Assembly (NCBI GenBank): GCA_027023445.1
Contig: JALVVK010000126.1
Coordinates: forward strand, 4,740-68,739
Direction: 5' to 3'
From: Deltaproteobacteria bacterium
Lineage (GTDB): Bacteria; Desulfobacterota; Dissulfuribacteria; Dissulfuribacterales; JALVPX01
Length of the DNA stretch: 64,000 nucleotides
Made by a program: the position numbers and the translations under genes. This document shows, in pieces, positions 620 through 56,503 of the stretch (positions are counted from its first letter, which is position 1; every line of letters begins with the position of its first letter). The notes below the pieces were generated by a model. It ran no database searches. It saw only the letters and a list, made by a program, of their open reading frames with translations, and was not told where the DNA came from.

Positions 620-635
620 TGGCATCTTCATTGCT
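620..635 (+). promoter_or_regulatory. Candidate sigma-54 (-24/-12) promoter TGGCAT-N5-TTGCT
   Basis: The sequence tGGcatcttcattGCt at 620-635 has GG and GC spaced exactly as in the consensus TGGCAC-N5-TTGCW. It lies in a 1-kb non-coding stretch upstream of a co-directional gene cluster, and a sigma-54 activator gene lies at the far end of that cluster. Confidence 0.5.
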
Positions 636-10632: not shown

Positions 10633-11286
10633 TCACCGGTTTATATCTTTTTTCAGGGTGATAAACCTCTCCAGCATGTTGTGCCAGTAAGGGGCCCCCA
10701 CACTGATCATGCACGCAGTGAGAAGCCGTTCAACAACATCTATATGCTGGATGTTAGGTTCCCACATCTGGAATTCCGCCCCGGAGGCCGAAAAAAATTT
10801 GTTCATAATGGAAAAGGCATTGATTCGCAGGCACAGGCAGAGAAGAAGACTGACCGCAAACGAGGTCATCAGCATGCCTTTCTTTATCTTCCCCCCTGCC
10901 ATCTTCAGCACCTGATCTATCTTGCTGAAAATCTCGCTCTCATGTTTAATCCTGAGCCTGTATCTTTCAAGGTAGGCCAGGAATCCTTCCGGATCTTTTC
11001 GAAACAATTCAGGAAGGTCTTTCTTCGTGATCTTGGAAAAATCGGATTCAGATGAAGAAGTAATATCCCTGTCCTTCGTGATCTTGGAAGAATCGGATTC
11101 GGATGAAGAAGTAATATGGATGTCTTCAAGACTGAGTTTTGCCTGATTCATCGCATCAACCACCGGATTTAAAAAGACAGTGCGCGCGATAAACAAATTT
11201 TTAAGGCTGGTATTGATAGATTTTACTATTATACACAATACTGTCATCCAGATAAAAAAGGCTATCGATGCGTCTAACAAGGGCAT
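10633..11286 (-). CDS. Hypothetical membrane protein with an in-frame 17-aa tandem repeat
   Basis: The ORF is 217 aa with N-terminal and central hydrophobic segments. The repeat reads DI(H)ITSSSESD(S/F)SKITK. I recognise no family. Confidence 0.5.
   Translation of the reverse strand: MPLLDASIAFFIWMTVLCIIVKSINTSLKNLFIARTVFLNPVVDAMNQAKLSLEDIHITSSSESDSSKITKDRDITSSSESDFSKITKKDLPELFRKDPEGFLAYLERYRLRIKHESEIFSKIDQVLKMAGGKIKKGMLMTSFAVSLLLCLCLRINAFSIMNKFFSASGAEFQMWEPNIQHIDVVERLLTACMISVGAPYWHNMLERFITLKKDINR
11026..11127. repeat. Tandem duplication, 2 x 51 bp, inside the hypothetical membrane-protein gene
   Basis: Units 11026-11076 and 11077-11127 share cgtgatcttggaa(a/g)aatcggattc(a/g)gatgaagaagtaatat. 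There are 2 mismatches over the first 41 nt. The period of 51 nt keeps the reading frame. Confidence 0.8.
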
Positions 11287-11790: not shown

Positions 11791-12750
11791 ATGCAAACAA
11801 TACACAAAATCAGACTGGCGCTGATCTGTGGAGGGACATCAGCCGAACGGGAAATTTCTCTTAAGGGGGCGCAAGAAGTAGAAAAGGCCCTTGATCCCAC
11901 CCGATATACCGTTACCAGATATGACCCCGCCTCAGATCTTGAAAAACTCGTCAGGGATTCAGACAACCTTGATGCCGCCTTTATTCTGTTACACGGCCGC
12001 CATGGCGAGGACGGCACTATCCAGGGGCTGCTCGATCTCATCGGGATTCCATATCAGGGATCGGGTGTTCTGGGAAGCGCCCTTGCCATGGACAAGCATA
12101 TGTCAAAGATTATTTATCAGAATGCCGGAATACCTACCCCTGAATGGATATACTTGGAAAAGACCGACCCGATAGACACCAGGACGATCATCACCCGACT
12201 GGGACTTCCTCTTATGGTCAAGCCATGCGTCCAAGGTTCCAGCGTTGGCATGAGCAGGGTGGAGGAAGAATCGGAACTGGAAAAAGCGATAATCGAAGCC
12301 CTTAAATGGGACAACTGCGTCCTGGTGGAATCCTGTCTGATCGGGCGGGAACTAACAGGAGGCGTTCTTGGAGACCCCAACCCTGAGCCTTTACCCCTGG
12401 TGGAAATCATCCCTGGGGATGACTTTGATTTCTTCGACTATGTTGCCAAATACCAGCCTGGCGCCACAAGGGAAATATGTCCGGCTGAGGTCACGGAAGC
12501 CATTGCCTCCAGGGCCAGGGACCTTGCGCTTAAAGCACATAATGCACTACGTCTTAGGGCATACAGCCGTACGGACATGATACTCACAGGGGACGACAGA
12601 TTATTTGTCCTGGAAACCAACACAATCCCGGGAATGACCCCCACAAGCCTTTTTCCGCAGGCCGCCCGGGCAGCAGGCATCCCCTTTGCCCGATTACTGG
12701 ATCGCCTTATAAAAATGGCGCTCGGAGCAAAAAACTGGCAGACAGGATAA
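11791..12750 (+). CDS. ddl: D-alanine--D-alanine ligase
   Basis: The ATG at 11791 follows AGGGAG. The sequence MQTIHKIRLALICGGTSAEREISL...LHGRHGEDGTIQGLLDLIGIPYQGSG...ETNTIPGMT is classic Ddl. Confidence 0.93.
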   Translation: MQTIHKIRLALICGGTSAEREISLKGAQEVEKALDPTRYTVTRYDPASDLEKLVRDSDNLDAAFILLHGRHGEDGTIQGLLDLIGIPYQGSGVLGSALAMDKHMSKIIYQNAGIPTPEWIYLEKTDPIDTRTIITRLGLPLMVKPCVQGSSVGMSRVEEESELEKAIIEALKWDNCVLVESCLIGRELTGGVLGDPNPEPLPLVEIIPGDDFDFFDYVAKYQPGATREICPAEVTEAIASRARDLALKAHNALRLRAYSRTDMILTGDDRLFVLETNTIPGMTPTSLFPQAARAAGIPFARLLDRLIKMALGAKNWQTG

Positions 12751-18421: not shown

Positions 18422-18681
18422 TTAAAAACCAAGATCAAGGTACACGGTGCCAGTGCACGGTACATGGTGTGAAAGGAGAATTGTTTCCCATTTCCGACAG
18501 ATACGCACGCTACAAGTTGCCAACCCGGCGGCGATACCGGCCCGCGCATCAGGTAAACCATGGAATCTCAAAATCCATTCCTGACAACATTTTACCGAAA
18601 ACACTGATGATTAACGAGGATATCCTGAACAAGCATCTTCCATGCCAGAGGGTAATTCCCCTGGCATGGCCTCTGCCTGGA

Positions 18682-30494: not shown

Positions 30495-31142
30495 TCACAT
30501 CGGCTCTATAAAGACCTCGACCCGCCGGTTCAGCTGGCGGCCCTGGGGCGTATCGTTTCCTGCCCTGGGTCTGCTTTCACCATAGCCTATGGCCGTAATC
30601 CTCTGAGGGGAGACTCCCCTGGCAATCAGAAGTCTCTTTACCGCATCGGCCCTTTCCTGGGAAAGGCGCAGATTGTATGCCTCGCTTCCCGTGCTGTCCG
30701 TATAGCCCTCAATCCGTATCCTTGTATCTGGGAAACGGGTCAGCACTCTTGCCATTCTGTCTATTTCTGAATACGCCCCTGGATGCAAGACGCTTGAATT
30801 CACATCAAAAAGGAAATCTCCTTTAAAGGTCACCGCGAGGATATCACCTTCACGTTGTATGGATGCGGCCTGGGAGGCTGCCATCGCCTGTCTCAGGGCC
30901 TCTTCCTGCTGGTCCATGTATCTGCCCACACCGGCGCCGGTCAATCCGCCTATGGCCGCCCCTATGGCTGCGCCCTCAAGTGTGCCCTTTGTATCGTGAC
31001 CTATGGCCTGCCCCACCAAGGCACCCACAGCAGCACCGGCTGCGGTTCCATACACGGCACCCTTCTGTGTGCGCGTCTGAGGGGGGGCGCAGGCTGCCAT
31101 TACCATAAGCAGCAAACAGGCAAACAGACTCATCTTTTTCAT
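30495..31142 (-). CDS. OmpA-family lipoprotein with a glycine-zipper region
   Basis: I set the start at the ATG at 31142 (MKKMSLFACLLLMVMAAC lipobox). A Gly-zipper follows (GAAVGALVGQAIG...GAAIGAAIGGLTGAGVG). The C-terminus is an OmpA-like domain (IRIEGYTDSTGSEAYNLRLSQERADAV...NRRVEVFI). Confidence 0.88.
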   Translation of the reverse strand: MKKMSLFACLLLMVMAACAPPQTRTQKGAVYGTAAGAAVGALVGQAIGHDTKGTLEGAAIGAAIGGLTGAGVGRYMDQQEEALRQAMAASQAASIQREGDILAVTFKGDFLFDVNSSVLHPGAYSEIDRMARVLTRFPDTRIRIEGYTDSTGSEAYNLRLSQERADAVKRLLIARGVSPQRITAIGYGESRPRAGNDTPQGRQLNRRVEVFIEPM

Positions 31143-31576
31143 AATCCAAATACCTCCTGGCGGTTTGCTGGAGAATAACTGTAGCAGATTATATACCACG
31201 CGGATGCAACATCAAGTGAATACTACTCTTGGGAACGACCGCCCCCTGAACCTGCCAGCATAAGGGTCGTTAATTATGATACTTATTGGCCTTGGACTCT
31301 GAAATAGCAAAAACAGGGGTCTACACTGAACATCTTGGTCTTTGCCTGGGGTAAAACTATATAACCGGTTCAGAAACAACGGCTCTGGTAACGACAAAAA
31401 TGTCGAAGCCAGGATACCATTGTCGAAATCAAATACCAGTAATCCTGTATCCAGCAATCCACACCAGACATCACAGGCATTGAAGTTTTGCAAAGATACA
31501 AGACGGATGAGACACAACTTGAGGAAACAGCTCAAAGCTGAAAGCTCAAGGTTTAAAGTAAAAGATTAAAAATCTG

Positions 31577-31701
31577 TACCGTGAAAACAGCTCATAGCTC
31601 ATGGTTTAAAAAATTGGGTGATTTTTGTGACTGTCACCTATGAGCCATGAACCAACTTTCATGCTCCGGGGGGCGAAGCACCACCTGGCATGAAAGTTGG
31701 T
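31577..31701 (+). repeat. Structured 125-bp intergenic repeat, copy 1
   Basis: It is identical to 31847-31971 at 123 of 125 positions. It contains a perfect 14-bp inverted repeat, accaactttcatgc / gcatgaaagttggt (31651-31664 / 31688-31701), around a 23-nt G-rich loop. It also carries gctcatag / ctatgagc complementarity. Confidence 0.9.
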
Positions 31702-31846
31702 GAACGAAACACCTGGCAGAATTAAGAACAACTGTTTAATTATTCAATTAAAATCGTTTTCTCGTGCATTTGAAATACATAATCCGGGATAATATATGCG
31801 ATGATTGATGGAAAACGGAAAAAACGGCACGCATTTTGACTATTTT

Positions 31847-31971
31847 TACCGTGAAAACAGCTCATAGCTCATGGTTTAAGAAATTGGGTGATTTTTGTGA
31901 CTATCACCTATGAGCCATGAACCAACTTTCATGCTCCGGGGGGCGAAGCACCACCTGGCATGAAAGTTGGT
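31847..31971 (+). repeat. Structured 125-bp intergenic repeat, copy 2 (ends 20 nt before the start codon of the 31992 gene)
   Basis: It matches copy 1 at 123 of 125 positions, offset by exactly 270 bp. Its 3' arm reads CTGGCATGAAAGTTGGT, which resembles a -24/-12 element. Confidence 0.9.
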
Positions 31972-31991
31972 TTATACTAAAATAAGGATGG

Positions 31992-32411
31992 TTGAAAGTG
32001 GCATACCGAAAGACACAAATAACAGGAATAATCACCTGTCTTATGTTATTGATAACAGGCGTAGCTCACGCCTCAGACACCATAGTCGGCACAGTGACCT
32101 CGGTTAATCTGGACCAGAAACGGTTAGGCATTGAGGTTATCCGGACGGATTCAAAAAAATTTCCTGCGGGAACCATTATTTACCTGGAGGCGACTGACAT
32201 CGGGCAGATCAAAAAGGGCCAGGCTGTCAGGGCTACCGTATCCTGCACAAGAGGAAAAAATATCTGCAGGGTAAAGGAAATCAACCTGCTTAAAAGATGC
32301 TGGTGTAAAGACAGAACAGGTGTCAGATACCGTCTTAACAGGGCCTGGCATCACAGAAGATGGTCTGGCCGCCATATCCGCAGCTGTCCTAGGTGGCACC
32401 GTGGCCGATAG
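31992..32411 (+). CDS. Small secreted protein, first gene of the HK/sigma-54 RR operon
   Basis: The ORF is 139 aa with a TTG start after AAGGATGG. It has a signal peptide (ITCLMLLITGVAHA-SD). The last roughly 35 aa are Arg/Trp/His-rich and overlap the kinase ORF out of frame, so the true C-terminus is uncertain. Confidence 0.5.
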   Translation: MKVAYRKTQITGIITCLMLLITGVAHASDTIVGTVTSVNLDQKRLGIEVIRTDSKKFPAGTIIYLEATDIGQIKKGQAVRATVSCTRGKNICRVKEINLLKRCWCKDRTGVRYRLNRAWHHRRWSGRHIRSCPRWHRGR

Positions 32412-33990
32412 AGACACAGGGACAAAATCTTTCCCAAGGCTCGCCTCCTGGCAGGGGAACGCCCTGGTCTTCGGAATCCTTTTTCTCGTGGTAGTCGCCT
32501 ACTTCATGTTCCAGGTACAGAATGCCCACAGGATGTTTATCAAGGATGCGGAAAACCATGCCAGACTCGTTGCAGATATTATCCGGGTCCATGCAAGGGG
32601 CACTGTACTCTCGGAACAGATTATCCGGACCACACTCAAGACCTTTCTGGGTAACACCACAAGATTTGTGAAATATCTGAATGCCATTGAACCCTTTGAC
32701 TCCGATGAGCTCACCGCCTTTGCCAAGGAATCAGGACTCGCGGGCATCAGTATTTTTTACCCGGACGGCACGGCAATTCACGGGCCCAGGGGATGGCTTG
32801 ACGGTATAAAGATAAAAGATTTAAAGGGCAACCGCCTGCTTCATTTTCCTGACAGGCATCTCATAGTCCTTGCAAGCCCGCTCAACACGGGGAAAGGATA
32901 CGTGGCGGCAGGTATCAGGGCGGAAAAAACAGAACTACTGCAAAAAGAAATCGGGCTGCCACAGACATTCAGGGCCATGGAACAGATCGAGGGAATCCGG
33001 TATATCCGGCTGGACAAGAATATTAAAAATCCGGCTGCCGCACACAGATCCATGCCTGGCAGGATAAAGATCATAAAATCCGGTAAGGATCTTGTGGCAG
33101 AGATCAAAATGCCCCTTGATATCGGGTTACTCACAGTGGGGCTTGATGCCCAGCCGCTTGAAAAAATCAGGAGAGACCTGTGGAGGGACTTTATTATATT
33201 CAGCATCCTGCTGGCAATTCTGGGTTCCACGCTGTCCTGGTTCCTCTACAGACATCAGGCAAGATATGTCAACCAGGTAAAGGAATATGAAAGACAGATT
33301 TCCAGGCAGAGGGAAGAGGCATCCCTTGGCCGGGCAGCGGCATCCATCGCCCACGAGATAAGGAATCCTTTAAACGCCATGGCCATGGGGCTTCAACGCC
33401 TGAAGATAGAGGCAACATGTCTTTCCGGAGAGCAGAAAAGGCTCATTGACATCGTTCTTGACTCCCTTAAACGGACAAACGGAATCGTAACCGGACTTCT
33501 CCGGTATGCTGGCATGTCTGAACCCTCGCTCAAACTGGGACAGGTTGATCTAATGGCCATGATCTCAGACGCCGTGACGCTTTACGAAAAACAGATGGAA
33601 CAGGCTGGAATACGGCTTGAAATGGACCTGGATTCCGGCAGACCCGTCACGGCAGATCCCGACCTTCTATCCCAGGTACTGGACAACCTGCTCCGAAACG
33701 CCATGGAGGCGCAGCCCCGGGGGGGATTCATACACATCTCCCTGAAGGCACGTCCTGAAACAATGGTTCTTACCATGAGAAACGGGGGCCATGTTCCACG
33801 CCCCGACCAGGCCGGGCAGCTTCTTGAGCCGTATTTTACCACGAAAACCCGGGGAACCGGCCTTGGCCTTGCCGTGTCAAACAGAATAGTACGGGCCCAT
33901 GGAGGCAAAATCACGCTCAACCTTCGAAAGGATGTATTCGAGGTAAAGGTGGAGCTCCCCCTGAACGGCCAGCACAGCAGGAAAGGATAA
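32320..33990 (+). CDS. Membrane sensor histidine kinase
   Basis: It has two TM segments flanking a roughly 230-aa extracytoplasmic domain. It has the H-box AASIAHEIRNPLNAM, the N-box DNLLRNAMEA and the G-box GTGLGLAV. The start is either the GTG at 32320 or the GTG at 32401 (after AGGTGG). Confidence 0.88.
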   Translation: MSDTVLTGPGITEDGLAAISAAVLGGTVADRDTGTKSFPRLASWQGNALVFGILFLVVVAYFMFQVQNAHRMFIKDAENHARLVADIIRVHARGTVLSEQIIRTTLKTFLGNTTRFVKYLNAIEPFDSDELTAFAKESGLAGISIFYPDGTAIHGPRGWLDGIKIKDLKGNRLLHFPDRHLIVLASPLNTGKGYVAAGIRAEKTELLQKEIGLPQTFRAMEQIEGIRYIRLDKNIKNPAAAHRSMPGRIKIIKSGKDLVAEIKMPLDIGLLTVGLDAQPLEKIRRDLWRDFIIFSILLAILGSTLSWFLYRHQARYVNQVKEYERQISRQREEASLGRAAASIAHEIRNPLNAMAMGLQRLKIEATCLSGEQKRLIDIVLDSLKRTNGIVTGLLRYAGMSEPSLKLGQVDLMAMISDAVTLYEKQMEQAGIRLEMDLDSGRPVTADPDLLSQVLDNLLRNAMEAQPRGGFIHISLKARPETMVLTMRNGGHVPRPDQAGQLLEPYFTTKTRGTGLGLAVSNRIVRAHGGKITLNLRKDVFEVKVELPLNGQHSRKG

Positions 33991-33992
33991 AC

Positions 33993-35324
33993 ATGAAGAT
34001 ACTCATTGTGGATGACGAACCGGACCAGAGAGAACTTCTCAAGGGTTTTCTTGAAAACCAGGGATATGATGTCCTTTGCGCGGCAGACGGCCGGGAGGCC
34101 ATCTCCCTGTTCAGGAAGGAACCCATACAGGTCGTTCTGCTGGACCAGAGGATGCCAGACATGAACGGGGAAGAAGTCCTTGAAAAAATAAAGGAGATAA
34201 ACCCCCTTGTCAGGGCAATGATGATCACTGCCTATGGGGCGGTAAACACAGCGGTAAATGTTATGAAGCTCGGGGCGGACGATTTCCTGGAAAAACCTGT
34301 GGATCTTTCCGTTCTGCTTGAAAAAATCCAGACACTTGAACAGAAAATCTCGGTTGAAGAAGACGTTAACGAGGTGGAGGACTCGGTATCCCTTTCCTCT
34401 CTTCCTATAAATATCGTGGCGGAAAGTCCTGAGATGAAGGAAGTACTGTCCATGGCGCGGCGCGTGGCTGACACGCCTTGGAGCGTACTGATCAGGGGTG
34501 AGACGGGCACAGGCAAGGAACTTATGGCGAGACTTATTCACCTTTTGAGCCCGCGAAGTGACGGTCCCTTCGTGGAGGTCAACTGTGCCGCGATCCCTGA
34601 AAATCTCTTTGAAAGCGAGCTGTTCGGTCATGAAAAAGGGGCGTTCACAGGCGCTGTTTCACGAAGGAGGGGAAAATTTGAAATGGCCCGGGAGGGTACC
34701 CTTTTCCTTGATGAAATCGGGGAACTCCCACCCGCGTTACAGCCGAAACTTCTGAGGGCGCTTCAGGAGAAAAAAATCTGCCGCGTTGGCAGTGAAAAGG
34801 ACCTGGAAACAGACGTAAGGGTAATTGCCGCCACCAACAGGGACCTCAAAAAACTCGCGGAAAAAGGCTCCTTCAGGGAGGATCTGTATTACAGGCTGAA
34901 CGTGTTCGAAATAGACATCCCCCCCCTGCGCAACCGGAAACAGGATATCCCGGCCCTGGTCAAATTCTTCATGGAACGCTACAGCACCAGACCAATGGAG
35001 TTATCGCCGGAGGCCATGGACATACTCATCAAGTATCCCCTTCCAGGCAACGTAAGGGAGCTTGAACACATCGTGCAGCGGGCGGTAACCCTTTCCAGGG
35101 GACGTGTCATAAAACCCATGGACCTGCCTCCTGAAATACGGCATTACCAGGCCATATCCACCGGCACCCTTAATGAAAGGCTGGAAGCAGTGGAAAGGGA
35201 AACCATCCTTTCAGCCCTGGAGAAGGCAGGCGGAGTCCAGACCGCTGCCGCCCGTATGCTGGGAATAAGCGAACGGGTCCTGAGATACAAAATGGCAAAA
35301 CACGGCATCAGGAGAATTCGCTGA
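33993..35324 (+). CDS. Sigma-54-dependent response regulator (NtrC/AtoC family)
   Basis: It has a receiver domain (ILIVDDEP...[10 protein letters not shown]) and an AAA+ domain with GETGTGKE and GAFTGA. It ends in a C-terminal HTH ([16 protein letters not shown]). It starts 2 nt after the kinase stop. Confidence 0.93.
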
Positions 35325-36000
35325 GCCTGACCATCGCCTCTGCCAGGGCCAGATCATCCTGTGTGGTGATCTTGAAATTACGGGAATTTCCCTGGACAAC
35401 CCCGACAGGTACGCCCATCGCTTCAAGCAGGCCCGCCTCATCCGTTGCCCGGATATCTTTTTCGTCTGCCAGCTCATAGGCGGAAAGCAGATCCAATCTC
35501 TTGCAGACCTGCGGTGTCTGGGCGAGGAACAGGCGTGTCCTCTCCAATGTGCGGAGGACAAGGCCATCGTCATAAACCTCCTTGACCGTGTCCCTTACCC
35601 TGATCCCGGGTATAGCGGCCCCCACCTCCTGCGCCATGAGGCACACGGCCTCTATGAGATCAGGGCTGACCATGGGCCTTGCGGCATCATGGACAGCCAC
35701 CCACTCGTTGGCAGAGGAAACGGCATCAAGCCCCGCCCTTACGGATTCCTGCCGTGTGGCGCCTCCTTGCACAACCCTTACGGGTTTGTCCGCGACCCAG
35801 CGTTGCGCGAGCTCAGCAACCCTATCTTCATCTCCAGCTGGAGACACGGCTATTATTTCATTAACCATGGGGGAACGGGAAAATGCCCCAAGGCTCCAGG
35901 CAATAACCGGCCTGTCTGAAAGCTGCGTAAACTGTTTGGGAATGTTACCGCCAAAGCGGGTTCCACTTCCGCCGGCAGCTATAATGGCTGACACCTTCAT
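35308..36000 (-). CDS. ispD: 2-C-methyl-D-erythritol 4-phosphate cytidylyltransferase
   Basis: The ORF is 230 aa. The sequence AIIAAGGSGTRFGGNIPKQF...VHDAARP...TPQ is a classic IspD signature. Its 3' end overlaps the convergent regulator gene by 17 nt. Confidence 0.92.
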   Translation of the reverse strand: MKVSAIIAAGGSGTRFGGNIPKQFTQLSDRPVIAWSLGAFSRSPMVNEIIAVSPAGDEDRVAELAQRWVADKPVRVVQGGATRQESVRAGLDAVSSANEWVAVHDAARPMVSPDLIEAVCLMAQEVGAAIPGIRVRDTVKEVYDDGLVLRTLERTRLFLAQTPQVCKRLDLLSAYELADEKDIRATDEAGLLEAMGVPVGVVQGNSRNFKITTQDDLALAEAMVRLSEFS

Positions 36001-36069: not shown

Positions 36070-36174
36070 AAATGGTAAATTGTGAATGGTGAATTGTAAA
36101 TGATAAATTGTGAATAATGAATTGTGAATTGTGAATGGTGAATTGTGAATTGTGAATGGTGAATTGTGAATTAT
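36070..36174. repeat. Tandem heptanucleotide array, 15 x 7 bp, consensus GAATTGT (variants GAATGGT, AAATTGT)
   Basis: I read it directly as aaatggt aaattgt gaatggt gaattgt aaatgat aaattgt gaataat gaattgt gaattgt gaatggt gaattgt gaattgt gaatggt gaattgt gaattat. It lies in the 211-bp gap between the glcD-like stop and the ispD start. Confidence 0.9.
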
Positions 36175-36211: not shown

Positions 36212-37582
36212 TTATAATTTTCCCGGATTCAGTATACCCCTGGGATCAAACACGCCCTTTATGCCTTTCATGAGGCCAATGGCGTCCGCCCCCAGCTCCA
36301 TGGAAAGATAAGGCCTCTTTGTAATCCCTGTACCGTGTTCGCCGGAAACAGTCCCGCCAAGGGACAGGGTCTGCTCCATGATCCAGTCAACCGCCTCATG
36401 GCAGTGCCTTTTGAGCTCCGGTTGACCGAGGTCAGTTAAAAGGTTGACGTGCAGATTGCCATCCCCTGCGTGCCCAAAGGAAAGAATGGTTATGTCAAAC
36501 CTCCGGCCCGCGTCTTCCAGCCTGCGCATCATTTCCGGCAGCGCGTCTCTTGGAACACATATGTCCTCGCTGACCTTGTCCGGATAACCCAGCCTCCTGA
36601 TGGCAGGAGAGAGTGATCTGCGGGCCTTCCAGAACCGGGCGGCCTGTTCCGGGGATTCAGCAACATGAAGCCCTGACGCACCGGCTGCCTGAAACACCGA
36701 GGCCATCTCCTGCGTCTCTTCCCTGACAGCAGGCAGACTGCCGTCCACCTCCGCAAGGAGCATGGCGCGCGTCCCCCGCGGCATGGAAACAGGAAGGCTG
36801 TCCTTCACGCATTCAAGGCTTAATCTGTCCAGCAATTCCACACACCTGGGAAGCACGCCGCGGGTAAACAGGGAAACCAGGCCCTTGCAGGCTTCACTCG
36901 GACCGGGGAAAAAGGCGAGAAGGGTTCCAACCGCCTTTGGCGCGGGAACCAGCCTGAGGAGAACCCTGGTGATTACGCCAAGCGTACCCTCTGAACCTAC
37001 CATGAGACGCGCGAGATTATATCCCACCACTCCTTTTGCCGTCCTGGTGCCGGTTTCAACCACCTTTCCGCCAGGCAGTACTATCTGGAGGGACATTACG
37101 TAATCCCTGGTCACGCCATATTTTACCGCCCTTGCACCACCCGCGCCCGTGGCAACATTACCGCCAATGGTACAGAAACCGAGACTTGCCGGGTCAGGAG
37201 GATACAGAAGGCCTGATTTTTCAACATGCGCCTGAATGCTGCCCGTTATGGCGCCGGGTTCCGCTTCCACGGTAAGGTTGGCCGTGTTTACGGAGAGGAT
37301 GCGGTTCATCCTCGAAAGACACAAAACCAGGCCGGGGATCTCCGCAAGCGCGCCACCGGTGGTTCCCGTGCCCGCGCCCCTCGGATAGACGGGAATACCC
37401 GCCGAGTTGGCAAGTTTCATGACCCGGACTACCTGCTCAAGGTCAGTGGGCAGGGCAACGGCCTCCGGCATGAAGCTCAACCCTGAGGCATCGTAGGAAT
37501 AGGTTCTCAGATCACATGGATCCAGCGAAAAATTCTCCCGGCCCAGGATCTTTGTAAACTGCCTGGCCAGAGACCTCTTCAT
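36212..37582 (-). CDS. FAD-linked oxidase, GlcD/D-lactate dehydrogenase family
   Basis: The ORF is 456 aa with an FAD-binding PCMH domain (IPVYPRGAGTGTTGG). The C-terminus has a GlcD-like motif (GGTVSGEHGTGITKRPY...DPRGILNPGK). Confidence 0.9.
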   Translation of the reverse strand: MKRSLARQFTKILGRENFSLDPCDLRTYSYDASGLSFMPEAVALPTDLEQVVRVMKLANSAGIPVYPRGAGTGTTGGALAEIPGLVLCLSRMNRILSVNTANLTVEAEPGAITGSIQAHVEKSGLLYPPDPASLGFCTIGGNVATGAGGARAVKYGVTRDYVMSLQIVLPGGKVVETGTRTAKGVVGYNLARLMVGSEGTLGVITRVLLRLVPAPKAVGTLLAFFPGPSEACKGLVSLFTRGVLPRCVELLDRLSLECVKDSLPVSMPRGTRAMLLAEVDGSLPAVREETQEMASVFQAAGASGLHVAESPEQAARFWKARRSLSPAIRRLGYPDKVSEDICVPRDALPEMMRRLEDAGRRFDITILSFGHAGDGNLHVNLLTDLGQPELKRHCHEAVDWIMEQTLSLGGTVSGEHGTGITKRPYLSMELGADAIGLMKGIKGVFDPRGILNPGKL

Positions 37583-42833: not shown

Positions 42834-42900
42834 AGGCATCCCCTTTAGCGCCTGAACATGCCAGACAAGAGGCAGAGACCGCAAAAACAAGCGCCATGAC

Positions 42901-42952
42901 CTGTCACCTTTAAGCTTTCAGCCAACCTTCATGCTCACGGGTGCGAAGCAGC
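42901..42952 (+). repeat. Diverged partial third copy of the 125-bp repeat
   Basis: Positions 42901-42950 align without gaps to 31631-31680, and I counted 40 of 50 identities. The shared block is ctgtcacct...ccaacYttcatgctc..gg.gcgaagca. The right-hand inverted-repeat arm is absent. Confidence 0.7.
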
Positions 42953-43092
42953 AATGCGCTGCCTTTTCGTCCAATCCGAATGTATTTTCAGGGTAAAAAA
43001 ACAAAATCCGCTTGACAACAAAAAGACCCTGGCTGATATAATGGGCGCGAGCCCATAAAATACGCCCAAAAAACCGGTTAAAAAACATTTCC

Positions 43093-55904: not shown

Positions 55905-56503
55905 GGTCCGATCTTGTTTAAATACATCAGGGATGCGGAATCCTTGAGCAGGCTTGATGCCAGCGTGAATGGTATCACCGGATCAAGCCTTGTGGAAAAG
56001 GTATTGTAAAAAAGCTTCTCAAGCGTCTCCCTTGCCTTGTTCTGACAGGACATGAAGAGAACCGTCCCGTCTGATATATCCATGCACAGGTCGTACGTGT
56101 GCGGGACCGGCAGAACCTTGGCCAGGAGCTGTTGCCTTACCCTTTCCTTGATTTCCAGCCTGACCTTCCTTGAAAGGCGTTTCAGATCTTTTTCCGCCAT
56201 GATCCTGCGCTCTTCAAGCAATACATGTTTTTTCAGCACCGGTTGGGGTATTTTCCTCTCATCGATCCTCATGGACACGACCAGGTAATTCCCAAAAGAT
56301 ATGTCAGGCAGGGCCACCTCACTCTTGAATGGATCTGTGGGAGATACCCAGCCCGTGTTTATTTCCCGGAGGGAGTATTCCATCTCGGAAAAATGGTGCC
56401 TGTTTATGGCCTCTACCGCATGGTTCCAGAAGTTGTCAGGAAGGGGATCAGATACCACGTATCTGCTTATACTTACTGTTGAAGAAAAGAATCCCATAGT
56501 CAC
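55889..56503 (-). CDS. RdgC-like recombination-associated protein (short form)
   Basis: The ORF is 204 aa. It is colinear with the first two thirds of E. coli RdgC as I recall it (GWV.P..., ERKIPQPVLKK...LEERR..., K.LSRK...IKE.V...LL, D...G.V.F.S...KA.E.LE.LF..TF). Confidence 0.6.
   Translation of the reverse strand: MTMGFFSSTVSISRYVVSDPLPDNFWNHAVEAINRHHFSEMEYSLREINTGWVSPTDPFKSEVALPDISFGNYLVVSMRIDERKIPQPVLKKHVLLEERRIMAEKDLKRLSRKVRLEIKERVRQQLLAKVLPVPHTYDLCMDISDGTVLFMSCQNKARETLEKLFYNTFSTRLDPVIPFTLASSLLKDSASLMYLNKIGPWTWK

Follow-up and report, generated by a model that had tools for sequence, protein, structure and literature searches.

Two near-identical repeats of 125 nt stand in front of a two-component operon with a sigma-54 activator in a Deltaproteobacteria bacterium, and it may be asked whether they belong to the control of that operon or have merely landed there. 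The repeats occur in a 64-kb stretch of contig JALVVK010000126.1 (assembly GCA_027023445.1), here called the window, and sit in an 855-bp intergenic region between a gene for an OmpA-like protein and a divergent operon for a small secreted protein, a histidine kinase and the activator. A first reading made without database searches (the sequence-only reading) had considered a duplicated promoter or enhancer cassette, a small RNA or attenuator hairpin, and a miniature mobile or REP-like element. The last of these is best supported, as related copies precede unrelated genes in other genomes and decayed fragments are found in the window. With slightly better than even confidence, the 125-nt unit is regarded here as a small non-coding structured dispersed repeat, a member of a new family resembling ERIC, Correia and REP elements, that has entered the sigma-54 control region of this species and is not itself sigma-54 machinery. 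The case for a dispersed repeat is built on its absence from orthologous loci, its location before unrelated genes elsewhere, its apparent occurrence more than once per genome, the existence of truncated and decayed copies, its sharp boundaries and its non-coding nature. That the element lies outside the sigma-54 machinery follows from the position of the activator sites and of both promoters, which are found elsewhere in the region and have been kept by relatives without the element.

The two copies differ at 2 of 125 positions, as had been read from the sequence, and a repeat search of the window reported them as 130 nt at 97% identity with a spacing of 270 bp. Their left and right flanks are no more similar to each other than shuffled sequence is, so that the duplication is confined to the 125-nt unit, and a larger segmental duplication is ruled out. 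The unit has sharp boundaries and no coding capacity. Its 51-nt hairpin core occurs exactly twice in the window, and none of 100 shuffles reproduced it. A CRISPR array, which the sequence-only reading had also dismissed, is ruled out by the presence of two 125-nt units with one 145-nt spacer.

Each copy folds into two adjacent hairpins. Folding energies on the plus strand are -52.6 kcal/mol (z-score -5.6) for copy 1 and -54.2 kcal/mol (z-score -6.1) for copy 2, and the minus strand folds about equally strongly (z-scores -5.4 and -6.2, respectively). The perfect 14-bp inverted repeat ACCAACTTTCATGC/GCATGAAAGTTGGT with its 23-nt loop, already noticed in the sequence, is present in both copies and reaches 18 bp in copy 2. 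A second complementarity that had been noticed along with it, GCTCATAG/CTATGAGC (31590-31597/31638-31645 in copy 1 and 31860-31867/31908-31915 in copy 2), is used in the minimum-energy fold of copy 2, where it forms the outer stem of hairpin 1. The arms of this hairpin are phased heptamers (GCTCATA GCTCATG GTTTAAG), which makes several pairing registers possible. Hairpin 2 carries a variable upper stem with a GCGAAGC triloop on top. Taken with the family members described below, the unit is composed of a conserved 5' tract, TACCGTGAAAAYAGCTC, a variable heptamer-built hairpin and a sequence-invariant hairpin of 13-14 bp with a GNA triloop.

Comparison with related genomes separates the element from the locus that harbours it. 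Three NCBI metagenome-assembled genomes (MAGs) of the same species (L004-L006), with 97% mean column identity over the intergenic region, were found to carry both copies, so that both are present in all four genomes of the species. MAGs of two related species, L007 and L018, share the gene order, with the OmpA-like gene divergent from the genes for the small secreted protein, the histidine kinase and the sigma-54 activator. The small protein and the kinase of L007 are 46% and 73% identical to those of the window, respectively, and the kinase of L018 is 60% identical. Their intergenic regions measure 278 bp (L007) and 303 bp (L018), against 855 bp in the window, and no copy of the element is present at either orthologous locus. 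Three more distant kinase orthologues (L020, L047 and L049) lie in a different gene order and were uninformative. The element would have arrived after the split from the nearest sampled relatives, and would now be there twice. In the sequence-only reading, absence both elsewhere and in relatives, together with the lack of a mapped transcript or bound protein, was to indicate a neutral local duplication; the element is indeed absent from the locus of the relatives, but the family exists elsewhere.

Three control sites are common to the three species, each occurring once per locus. The first is an activator site (upstream activating sequence, UAS), which is unique in the window and in each relative, starting at 9863 in L007 and at 3423 in L018. 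Its alignment scores of 42 (L007) and 38 (L018) compare with a mean of 18 for shuffled sequence, and 0 of 300 shuffles reached them; the site likely holds the binding sites of the sigma-54 activator. The second is a sigma-54 promoter on the minus strand in front of the OmpA-like gene, found as TGGCATATAATATGCT in L007 and as TGGCATAATACCTGCT in L018. The form in the window, TGGTATATAATCTGCT, fits the sigma-54 consensus tGGcacg-N4-tTGCt of the Desulfovibrionales (PMC4641369). The third is a site on the plus strand, GGCAY-N5-TTGA, found at the equivalent place in L007 (9948-9961) and L018 (3507-3520). Its form in the window, GGCAC-N5-TTGA, has a single match in the 64 kb, where 1.4 are expected by chance, and the -12 element reads GA in all three species. 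Position and conservation suggest that this is likely the sigma-54 promoter of the operon, with a predicted transcription start at about 31851, inside copy 2.

A rather different assignment had been proposed for the repeat itself. The sequence-only reading pointed to a near-miss sigma-54 motif, TGGCATGAAAGTTGGT, in the right arm of hairpin 2 (31686-31701 and 31956-31971), and it was confirmed that both copies contain it, with GG at -12. If this arm were a sigma-54 promoter, or the inverted repeat an enhancer bound by the activator, the two copies would form a duplicated autoregulation cassette. The sequence TGGCAT-N5-TTGG matches the Desulfovibrionales consensus tGGcacg-N4-tTGCt save two positions (PMC4641369), and the start from copy 2 would fall at about 31982, 2 nt before the Shine-Dalgarno sequence. 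However, the -12 element reads GG and not GC, the -24 GG is missing in two family members from metagenomic contigs (TTAGCATG in L011 and TGAGCATG in L012), and copy 1 of L004 and L006 reads TTTG. The CGACA/TGTCG motif of the activator site is absent from the element, and the relatives without the element retain the other promoter-like site and the activator site. A promoter or enhancer cassette is consequently considered very unlikely. Two further functions were rejected. A sigma-70 promoter in or at the element would be CTGGCA-17-TAAAAT only, which would start transcription inside the Shine-Dalgarno sequence, and no -10 element is conserved among the family members. Leader peptides starting from ATGAAAGTT in the right arm would be open reading frames (ORFs) of 6 to about 12 codons, which lack a Shine-Dalgarno sequence and are not conserved.

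The position of copy 2 relative to these sites is precise. It starts 7 nt past the -12 element of the candidate operon promoter and ends 12 nt before the Shine-Dalgarno sequence and 26 nt before the GTG start codon. Removal of copy 2 would leave 33 nt between promoter and start codon, compared to 39 nt in L007 and 53 nt in L018, and the alignment with L007 is continuous across the copy-2 junction. Copy 2 thus resembles a clean insertion in what was a short 5' leader. Lying between the -12 element and the Shine-Dalgarno sequence, it probably makes up the first ~120 nt of the operon transcript. Its hairpins could alter mRNA stability, partially terminate transcription or affect the access of ribosomes. 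Copy 1 lies on the other side of the candidate promoter. In L007 the box TTTAAAGTAAAA is located 4 nt upstream of GGCAC; in the window, where copy 1 and the 145-bp spacer intervene, it is found at 31552-31563 and the distance is about 260 nt. Copy 1 would thus lengthen the distance between activator site and promoter, and is probably inert.

This arrangement places the candidate promoter between two direct repeats that are 98% identical, and a recombination switch may be imagined in which RecA-mediated deletion of the 270-bp segment with the promoter silences the operon in a subpopulation. A Logan contig breaks inside copy 2, though any repeat would cause such a break. All four assembled genomes carry two copies, no single-copy variant was seen among them, and nothing suggests selection for the arrangement; a switch is thought to be the least probable of the explanations considered, with hardly any weight given to it. 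The contig in question (L001, from SRR18691003, 4206 nt) ends within hairpin 2 of copy 2. An assembly break is expected at a repeat, and short-read assemblies will for that reason often lose the region.

The predicted start at the 5' end of copy 2 also raises the question whether the units are small RNA genes of about 125 nt, paralogous in the manner of Qrr or Pxr, with copy 2 expressed by means of the sigma-54 promoter and with partial termination behind hairpin 2. A conserved, single-stranded 5' tract would suit a seed region, and UUUAU follows hairpin 2 of copy 2. Against this, no promoter was recognised upstream of copy 1, and a proper U-tract after hairpin 2 was found in no family member, the UUUAU belonging to the flank of copy 2 only and being partly paired in the 18-bp stem. 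A scan for intrinsic terminators gave none at the element, and hairpin 2 ends just 12 nt from the Shine-Dalgarno sequence of the operon. Small RNA genes are held to be improbable, if less so than the switch or the promoter cassette. The small RNA or attenuator role named in the sequence-only reading is a candidate for copy 2 only, which is the copy downstream of the likely promoter.

Full-length relatives of the unit exist outside this locus. A scan of JGI metagenomes with the hairpin arms as pattern yielded L011, which holds a full-length member. Its 5' tract is nearly unchanged, as is hairpin 2 in its lower stem and loop; hairpin 1 has diverged but still forms a hairpin. The element lies 42 nt upstream of, and sense to, a gene for a 167-aa protein of unknown function; the locus is present in five assemblies, and a homologue of the downstream gene (59%) lacks the element. 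A second full-length member, in L012, is sense to a gene for an HSDR_N_2 protein and lies about 33 nt upstream of it. The stem of its hairpin 1 reads GCTCAAAG/CTTTGAGC in place of the GCTCATAG/CTATGAGC of the window, which amounts to a compensatory U-A to A-U change, and compensatory changes were found in the upper stem of hairpin 2 as well. The 13-bp arms of hairpin 2 are invariant among full-length members that are otherwise 62-74% identical, and its top reads GCGAAGC or GCAAAGC.

Fragments were recognised in the window with an nhmmer profile built from the four full-length sequences. The decayed partial unit that had been reported upstream of copy 1 is real: it is a heptamer array that shares a 16-nt identity, AGCTCAAAGCTGAAAG (31529-31544), with the 5' part of the L012 element, which makes it a truncated 5' fragment of an L012-like variant. 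A second fragment lies 11 kb from the main locus, between a Macro-domain gene and an NIR_SIR/Fer4 gene. It retains the 3' half of hairpin 1 and the left arm and loop of hairpin 2, while the right arm of hairpin 2 is gone. The two fragments point to birth and decay of copies. In all, the 64 kb contain two loci: two intact copies and a fragment lie together at 31.5-32.0 kb, and a lone fragment at 42.9 kb. L011 and L012 may represent one organism. A consensus sigma-70 promoter, TTGACA-17-TATAAT, is located at 43013-43041, downstream of the fragment at 42.9 kb.

It can be asked whether these properties reflect a selected function rather than spread. The element may be a selected cis-acting 5' leader RNA, a portable riboregulator of stability, termination or translation acting through a shared factor, with copy 1 as a spare or dead duplicate. 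Copy 2 and the elements of L011 and L012 each precede a gene in sense orientation, at 26, 42 and ~33 nt from its start, respectively, and copy 2 is downstream of a conserved promoter-like site. No variation is seen in the 5' tract or in the lower stem of hairpin 2, against 62-74% identity over the remainder; hairpin 1 and the upper stem of hairpin 2 show compensatory changes, and copy 2 is without polymorphism among the four conspecific genomes. In these genomes copy 1 has 2 polymorphic sites per 125 nt, one of which breaks a stem, and copy 2 none, numbers that are small; a TTGG to TTTG change lies in hairpin 2 of copy 1 in L004 and L006. On the other hand, the genes behind the elements are not related to each other, neither copy 1 nor the 42.9-kb fragment lies in a leader, and the element is absent from the orthologous loci of relatives and from the homologue of the L011 gene. 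No strand preference is apparent either: G-U and A-C pairs, from which the transcribed strand might be assigned, are equally frequent in the hairpin-2 alignment (9 versus 9), and the stronger fold is on the plus strand in the window but, for L011 and L012, on the minus strand. So long a stem, conserved perfectly, does not resemble those of ligand-binding RNAs, and there is no Rfam match. A leader RNA of this kind is given about half the weight of the dispersed repeat, as a possible explanation that is doubtful on balance. In its wider form, an undescribed portable 5'-leader module occurring in at least two lineages and providing common post-transcriptional control, for example by docking of one RNA-binding protein or RNase, it is judged slightly more doubtful still.

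Returning to the dispersed repeat, the known classes of such elements were compared with the unit. Covariance-model scans support the earlier statement that it belongs to no Rfam family: no E-value below 2 was obtained for the window region (scanned to E 10), and no match at the elements of L011-L014 and L017 (to E 1). Matches to Hsp90_CRE and mir-498 were rejected as chance. The 5' end, TACCGTGAAAAC, and the reverse complement of the 3' end, ACCAACTTTCAT, have ACC alone in common, so terminal inverted repeats were not found, and no target-site duplication is visible, as the flanks of the copies (ATCTG and GAACG; ATTTT and TTATA) share at most 1 nt. Without terminal inverted repeats or a target duplication, the unit is not a miniature inverted-repeat transposable element (MITE) by definition. 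It is not an integron attC site either, since its ends GTTGGTT and GTTGGTG misfit the GTTRRRY core and a cassette context is lacking.

Several of the findings weigh against a dispersed repeat. Mobility would be without a visible mechanism: beside the missing terminal inverted repeats and target-site duplication, no transposase was found, although a genome-wide search for such enzymes was not made. The only two intact copies in 64 kb both lie within one intergenic region, and neither the rest of the window nor ~465 kb of DNA fetched from relatives contained a further copy, which shows that the element is not a high-copy repeat. Two copies that are 98% identical amid unrelated sequence would require recent insertion or gene conversion. 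The element is sense to the downstream gene at all four independent loci, with 26-42 nt between it and the start codon in the three intact cases; this pattern of orientation and spacing fits a selected leader function as well as a selfish element. Finally, the -12 element of the proposed operon promoter reads GA and not GC, and the transcription start is predicted from sequence. The sense bias could also reflect the antisense strand, on which hairpin 1 is followed by GUUUUCAC and may act as a terminator. While presence or absence, family membership and position have been read directly from the genomes, the mode of spread and any effect on expression are proposed on the strength of these patterns. 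As a lead only, the invariant arms of hairpin 2 and its stable cap are what might be expected if an HUH or Y1 enzyme recognised the hairpin as single-stranded DNA, as at the ends of REP or IS200/IS605 elements. The sequence GCGAAGC forms a very stable DNA mini-hairpin.

Hairpins resembling hairpin 2 occur more widely, but their relation to the element is uncertain. Five look-alikes (L013, L014, L016, L017 and L002) consist of the hairpin only, with the same arms and the loop GGnnTGC-GAA/AAA-GCAyC, and sit in Betaproteobacteria-like contigs and in plasmid 2 of Polaromonas JS666. They may at most be relatives, since the search pattern had fixed the arms. In viral contigs, 11-nt arms and the 5' tract each gave 0 matches, and 10-nt arms gave 12 matches in about 6 families with unrelated loops, compared to 0 and 8 matches (0 and about 1 families) for permuted-arm controls; arm sequence alone is consequently weak evidence of homology. 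A plasmid BLAST search gave the Polaromonas JS666 plasmid hairpin as its sole match. A scan of the genome collection with the hairpin pattern matched two unrelated MAGs (Burkholderiales and Chitinophagaceae), which were set aside; the Chitinophagaceae match is a hairpin at a gene start and looks like chance. A 63-nt hairpin with flank, TAACTTTCATGCTTCGGAATGCGAAGCA.CCCGA.GCATGAAAGTTCGTTCTTTCRCGTTAA, was seen in L013 (2724-2790) and L017 (2993-3060; Polaromonas sp. JS666 plasmid 2, NC_007950 325447-325509). It is 94% identical between metagenomic contig and plasmid while the gene contexts differ, and it may be a separate small repeat of the Comamonadaceae.

Small structured repeat families are known as ERIC, Correia, REP/REPIN, RUP and MITEs. 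ERIC (IRU) and Correia (CREE/NEMIS) elements are small intergenic repeats of enterobacteria and Neisseria. They resemble the present element in being structured non-coding units of ~100-160 nt that are intergenic, often transcribed and found beside unrelated genes, whose presence varies among related genomes, and which can land between a promoter and a start codon and so alter the mRNA. They are, however, long imperfect palindromes bounded by terminal inverted repeats and number tens to hundreds of copies, with a TA target duplication in the case of Correia elements, whereas the two hairpins of the present element differ from each other, terminal inverted repeats and a duplication are absent, and the sampled copy number is low. 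PATEs, derived from IS200/IS605, and the cyanobacterial STRR and small dispersed repeats show likeness in the lack of target duplication, in subterminal hairpins and in tandem heptamers. In PATEs the left-end and right-end hairpins are alike, while the two hairpins of the element are dissimilar, a conserved target of 4-5 nt is lacking (GTAC/TTAC at best) and no TnpA was found. REP/BIME sequences and REPINs with RAYT likewise have a conserved short hairpin as their module, lie between genes and form families within genomes that include decayed members, with possible recognition of a single-stranded DNA hairpin, but REPs are 20-40 nt long, with REPINs made of two inverted REPs, linked to RAYT and present in hundreds of copies (PMC3116915), whereas the element is 125 nt long and adds a heptamer hairpin and a 5' tract. 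The locus, by contrast, fits the sigma-54 promoter/UAS architecture of divergent operons in Desulfobacterota, in which one activator site serves both promoters and one of the operons encodes the activator (PMC4641369). The repeat is not a component of that architecture, but interrupts it.

Table 1 Positions of the element, its relatives, the control sites and the genes of the locus (window coordinates unless a contig is named)
Feature	Position	Strand	Description
Divergent OmpA-family gene	30495-31142	-	glycine zipper; left of the repeat
Sigma-54 promoter of OmpA-like gene	31183-31198	-	TGGTATATAATCTGCT, GG-N10-GC
Activator site (UAS), likely	31392-31428		palindrome CGACA-N4-TGTCGAA (CGACAAAAATGTCG(AA)) plus TTGTCGAAA
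Partial unit	31524-31558	+	heptamer array AGCTCAA AGCTGAA AGCTCAA GGTTTAA, (AGCTCAA)x3; nhmmer match weak, E 0.5
Copy 1 of element	31577-31701	+	between conserved activator-binding site and likely sigma-54 promoter
Candidate sigma-54 promoter of operon	31826-31839	+	GGCACGCATTTTGA, -24 GG at 31826/7, -12 reads GA
Copy 2 of element	31847-31971	+	predicted 5' leader of operon mRNA
Hairpin 1	copy 1 31590-31645; copy 2 31860-31915	+	outer stem GCTCATAG/CTATGAGC
Hairpin 2	copy 1 31651-31701; copy 2 31917-31975	+	lower stem 13-14 bp
Small secreted protein gene	31998-32411	+	first gene of operon, GTG start
Histidine kinase gene	32320 or 32401 to 33990	+	second gene of operon
Response regulator gene	33993-35324	+	third gene of operon; sigma-54 activator domain
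Decayed fragment	42897-42953	+	nhmmer E 3.6e-8; 79% identical to positions 52-107 of copy 2
Full-length member, L011	1474-1608 of L011		74% identical over whole unit
Full-length member, L012	821-956 of L012	- (of contig)	64% identical; contig from same metagenome as L011

Among the genes of the locus (Table 1), the kinase has named homologues from Desulfobacterota, e.g. Desulfonema, Desulfococcaceae and Dissulfurimicrobium. The activator of the two-component system probably acts chiefly on the OmpA-like lipoprotein. The operon had been read as starting at TTG 31992, but this codon is CTG in the three conspecific genomes, and the start is placed at GTG 31998 instead. The longest ORF of the kinase begins at GTG 32320 and shares 92 nt (32320-32411) with the end of the small-protein gene, the NCBI start of the kinase being at ~32401. 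Arg, Trp and His abound in the final ~35 residues of the small protein, which resemble out-of-frame sequence. In L005 (10359-11949) the kinase is split into ORFs of 452 aa and 75 aa by a frameshift or an assembly error.

The window holds other sequences of possible regulatory or repetitive nature. The pattern TGGYAY-N5-HTGCW has 4 matches against 0.9 expected; those beyond the OmpA-like site, at 620-635 (plus strand), 18632-18647 (minus strand) and 55947-55962 (minus strand), are maybe sigma-54 promoters. A heptamer array, (AATTGTG)x13.6, occupies 36078-36172 between ispD (35308-36000, minus strand) and a gene for an FAD-linked oxidase (36212-37582, minus strand), ~1.4 kb from dnaA. The array is STRR-like, and its reverse complement, CACAATT, loosely resembles the core of a DnaA box; together with the heptamer arms of hairpin 1 it points to a genome that is prone to heptamer repeats. 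A 51-bp tandem duplication at 11023-11124 is 90% identical, and weaker core matches lie at 12264 and 45372.

For the annotation of this locus, control is to be assigned to the shared activator site and the two divergent promoters, with the TGGCA...TTGG repeat as a passenger and not a promoter. The repeat itself would represent an undescribed family of small structured repeats in Desulfobacterota-like genomes, of unusual build in combining heptamer-derived arms with an invariant hairpin capped by GCGAAGC. If the leader module were true, it would couple the sigma-54 two-component operon to common post-transcriptional control. Should copy 2 affect the mRNA, the locus would provide an example from nature of a sigma-54 promoter whose output has been rewired by a repeat insertion.

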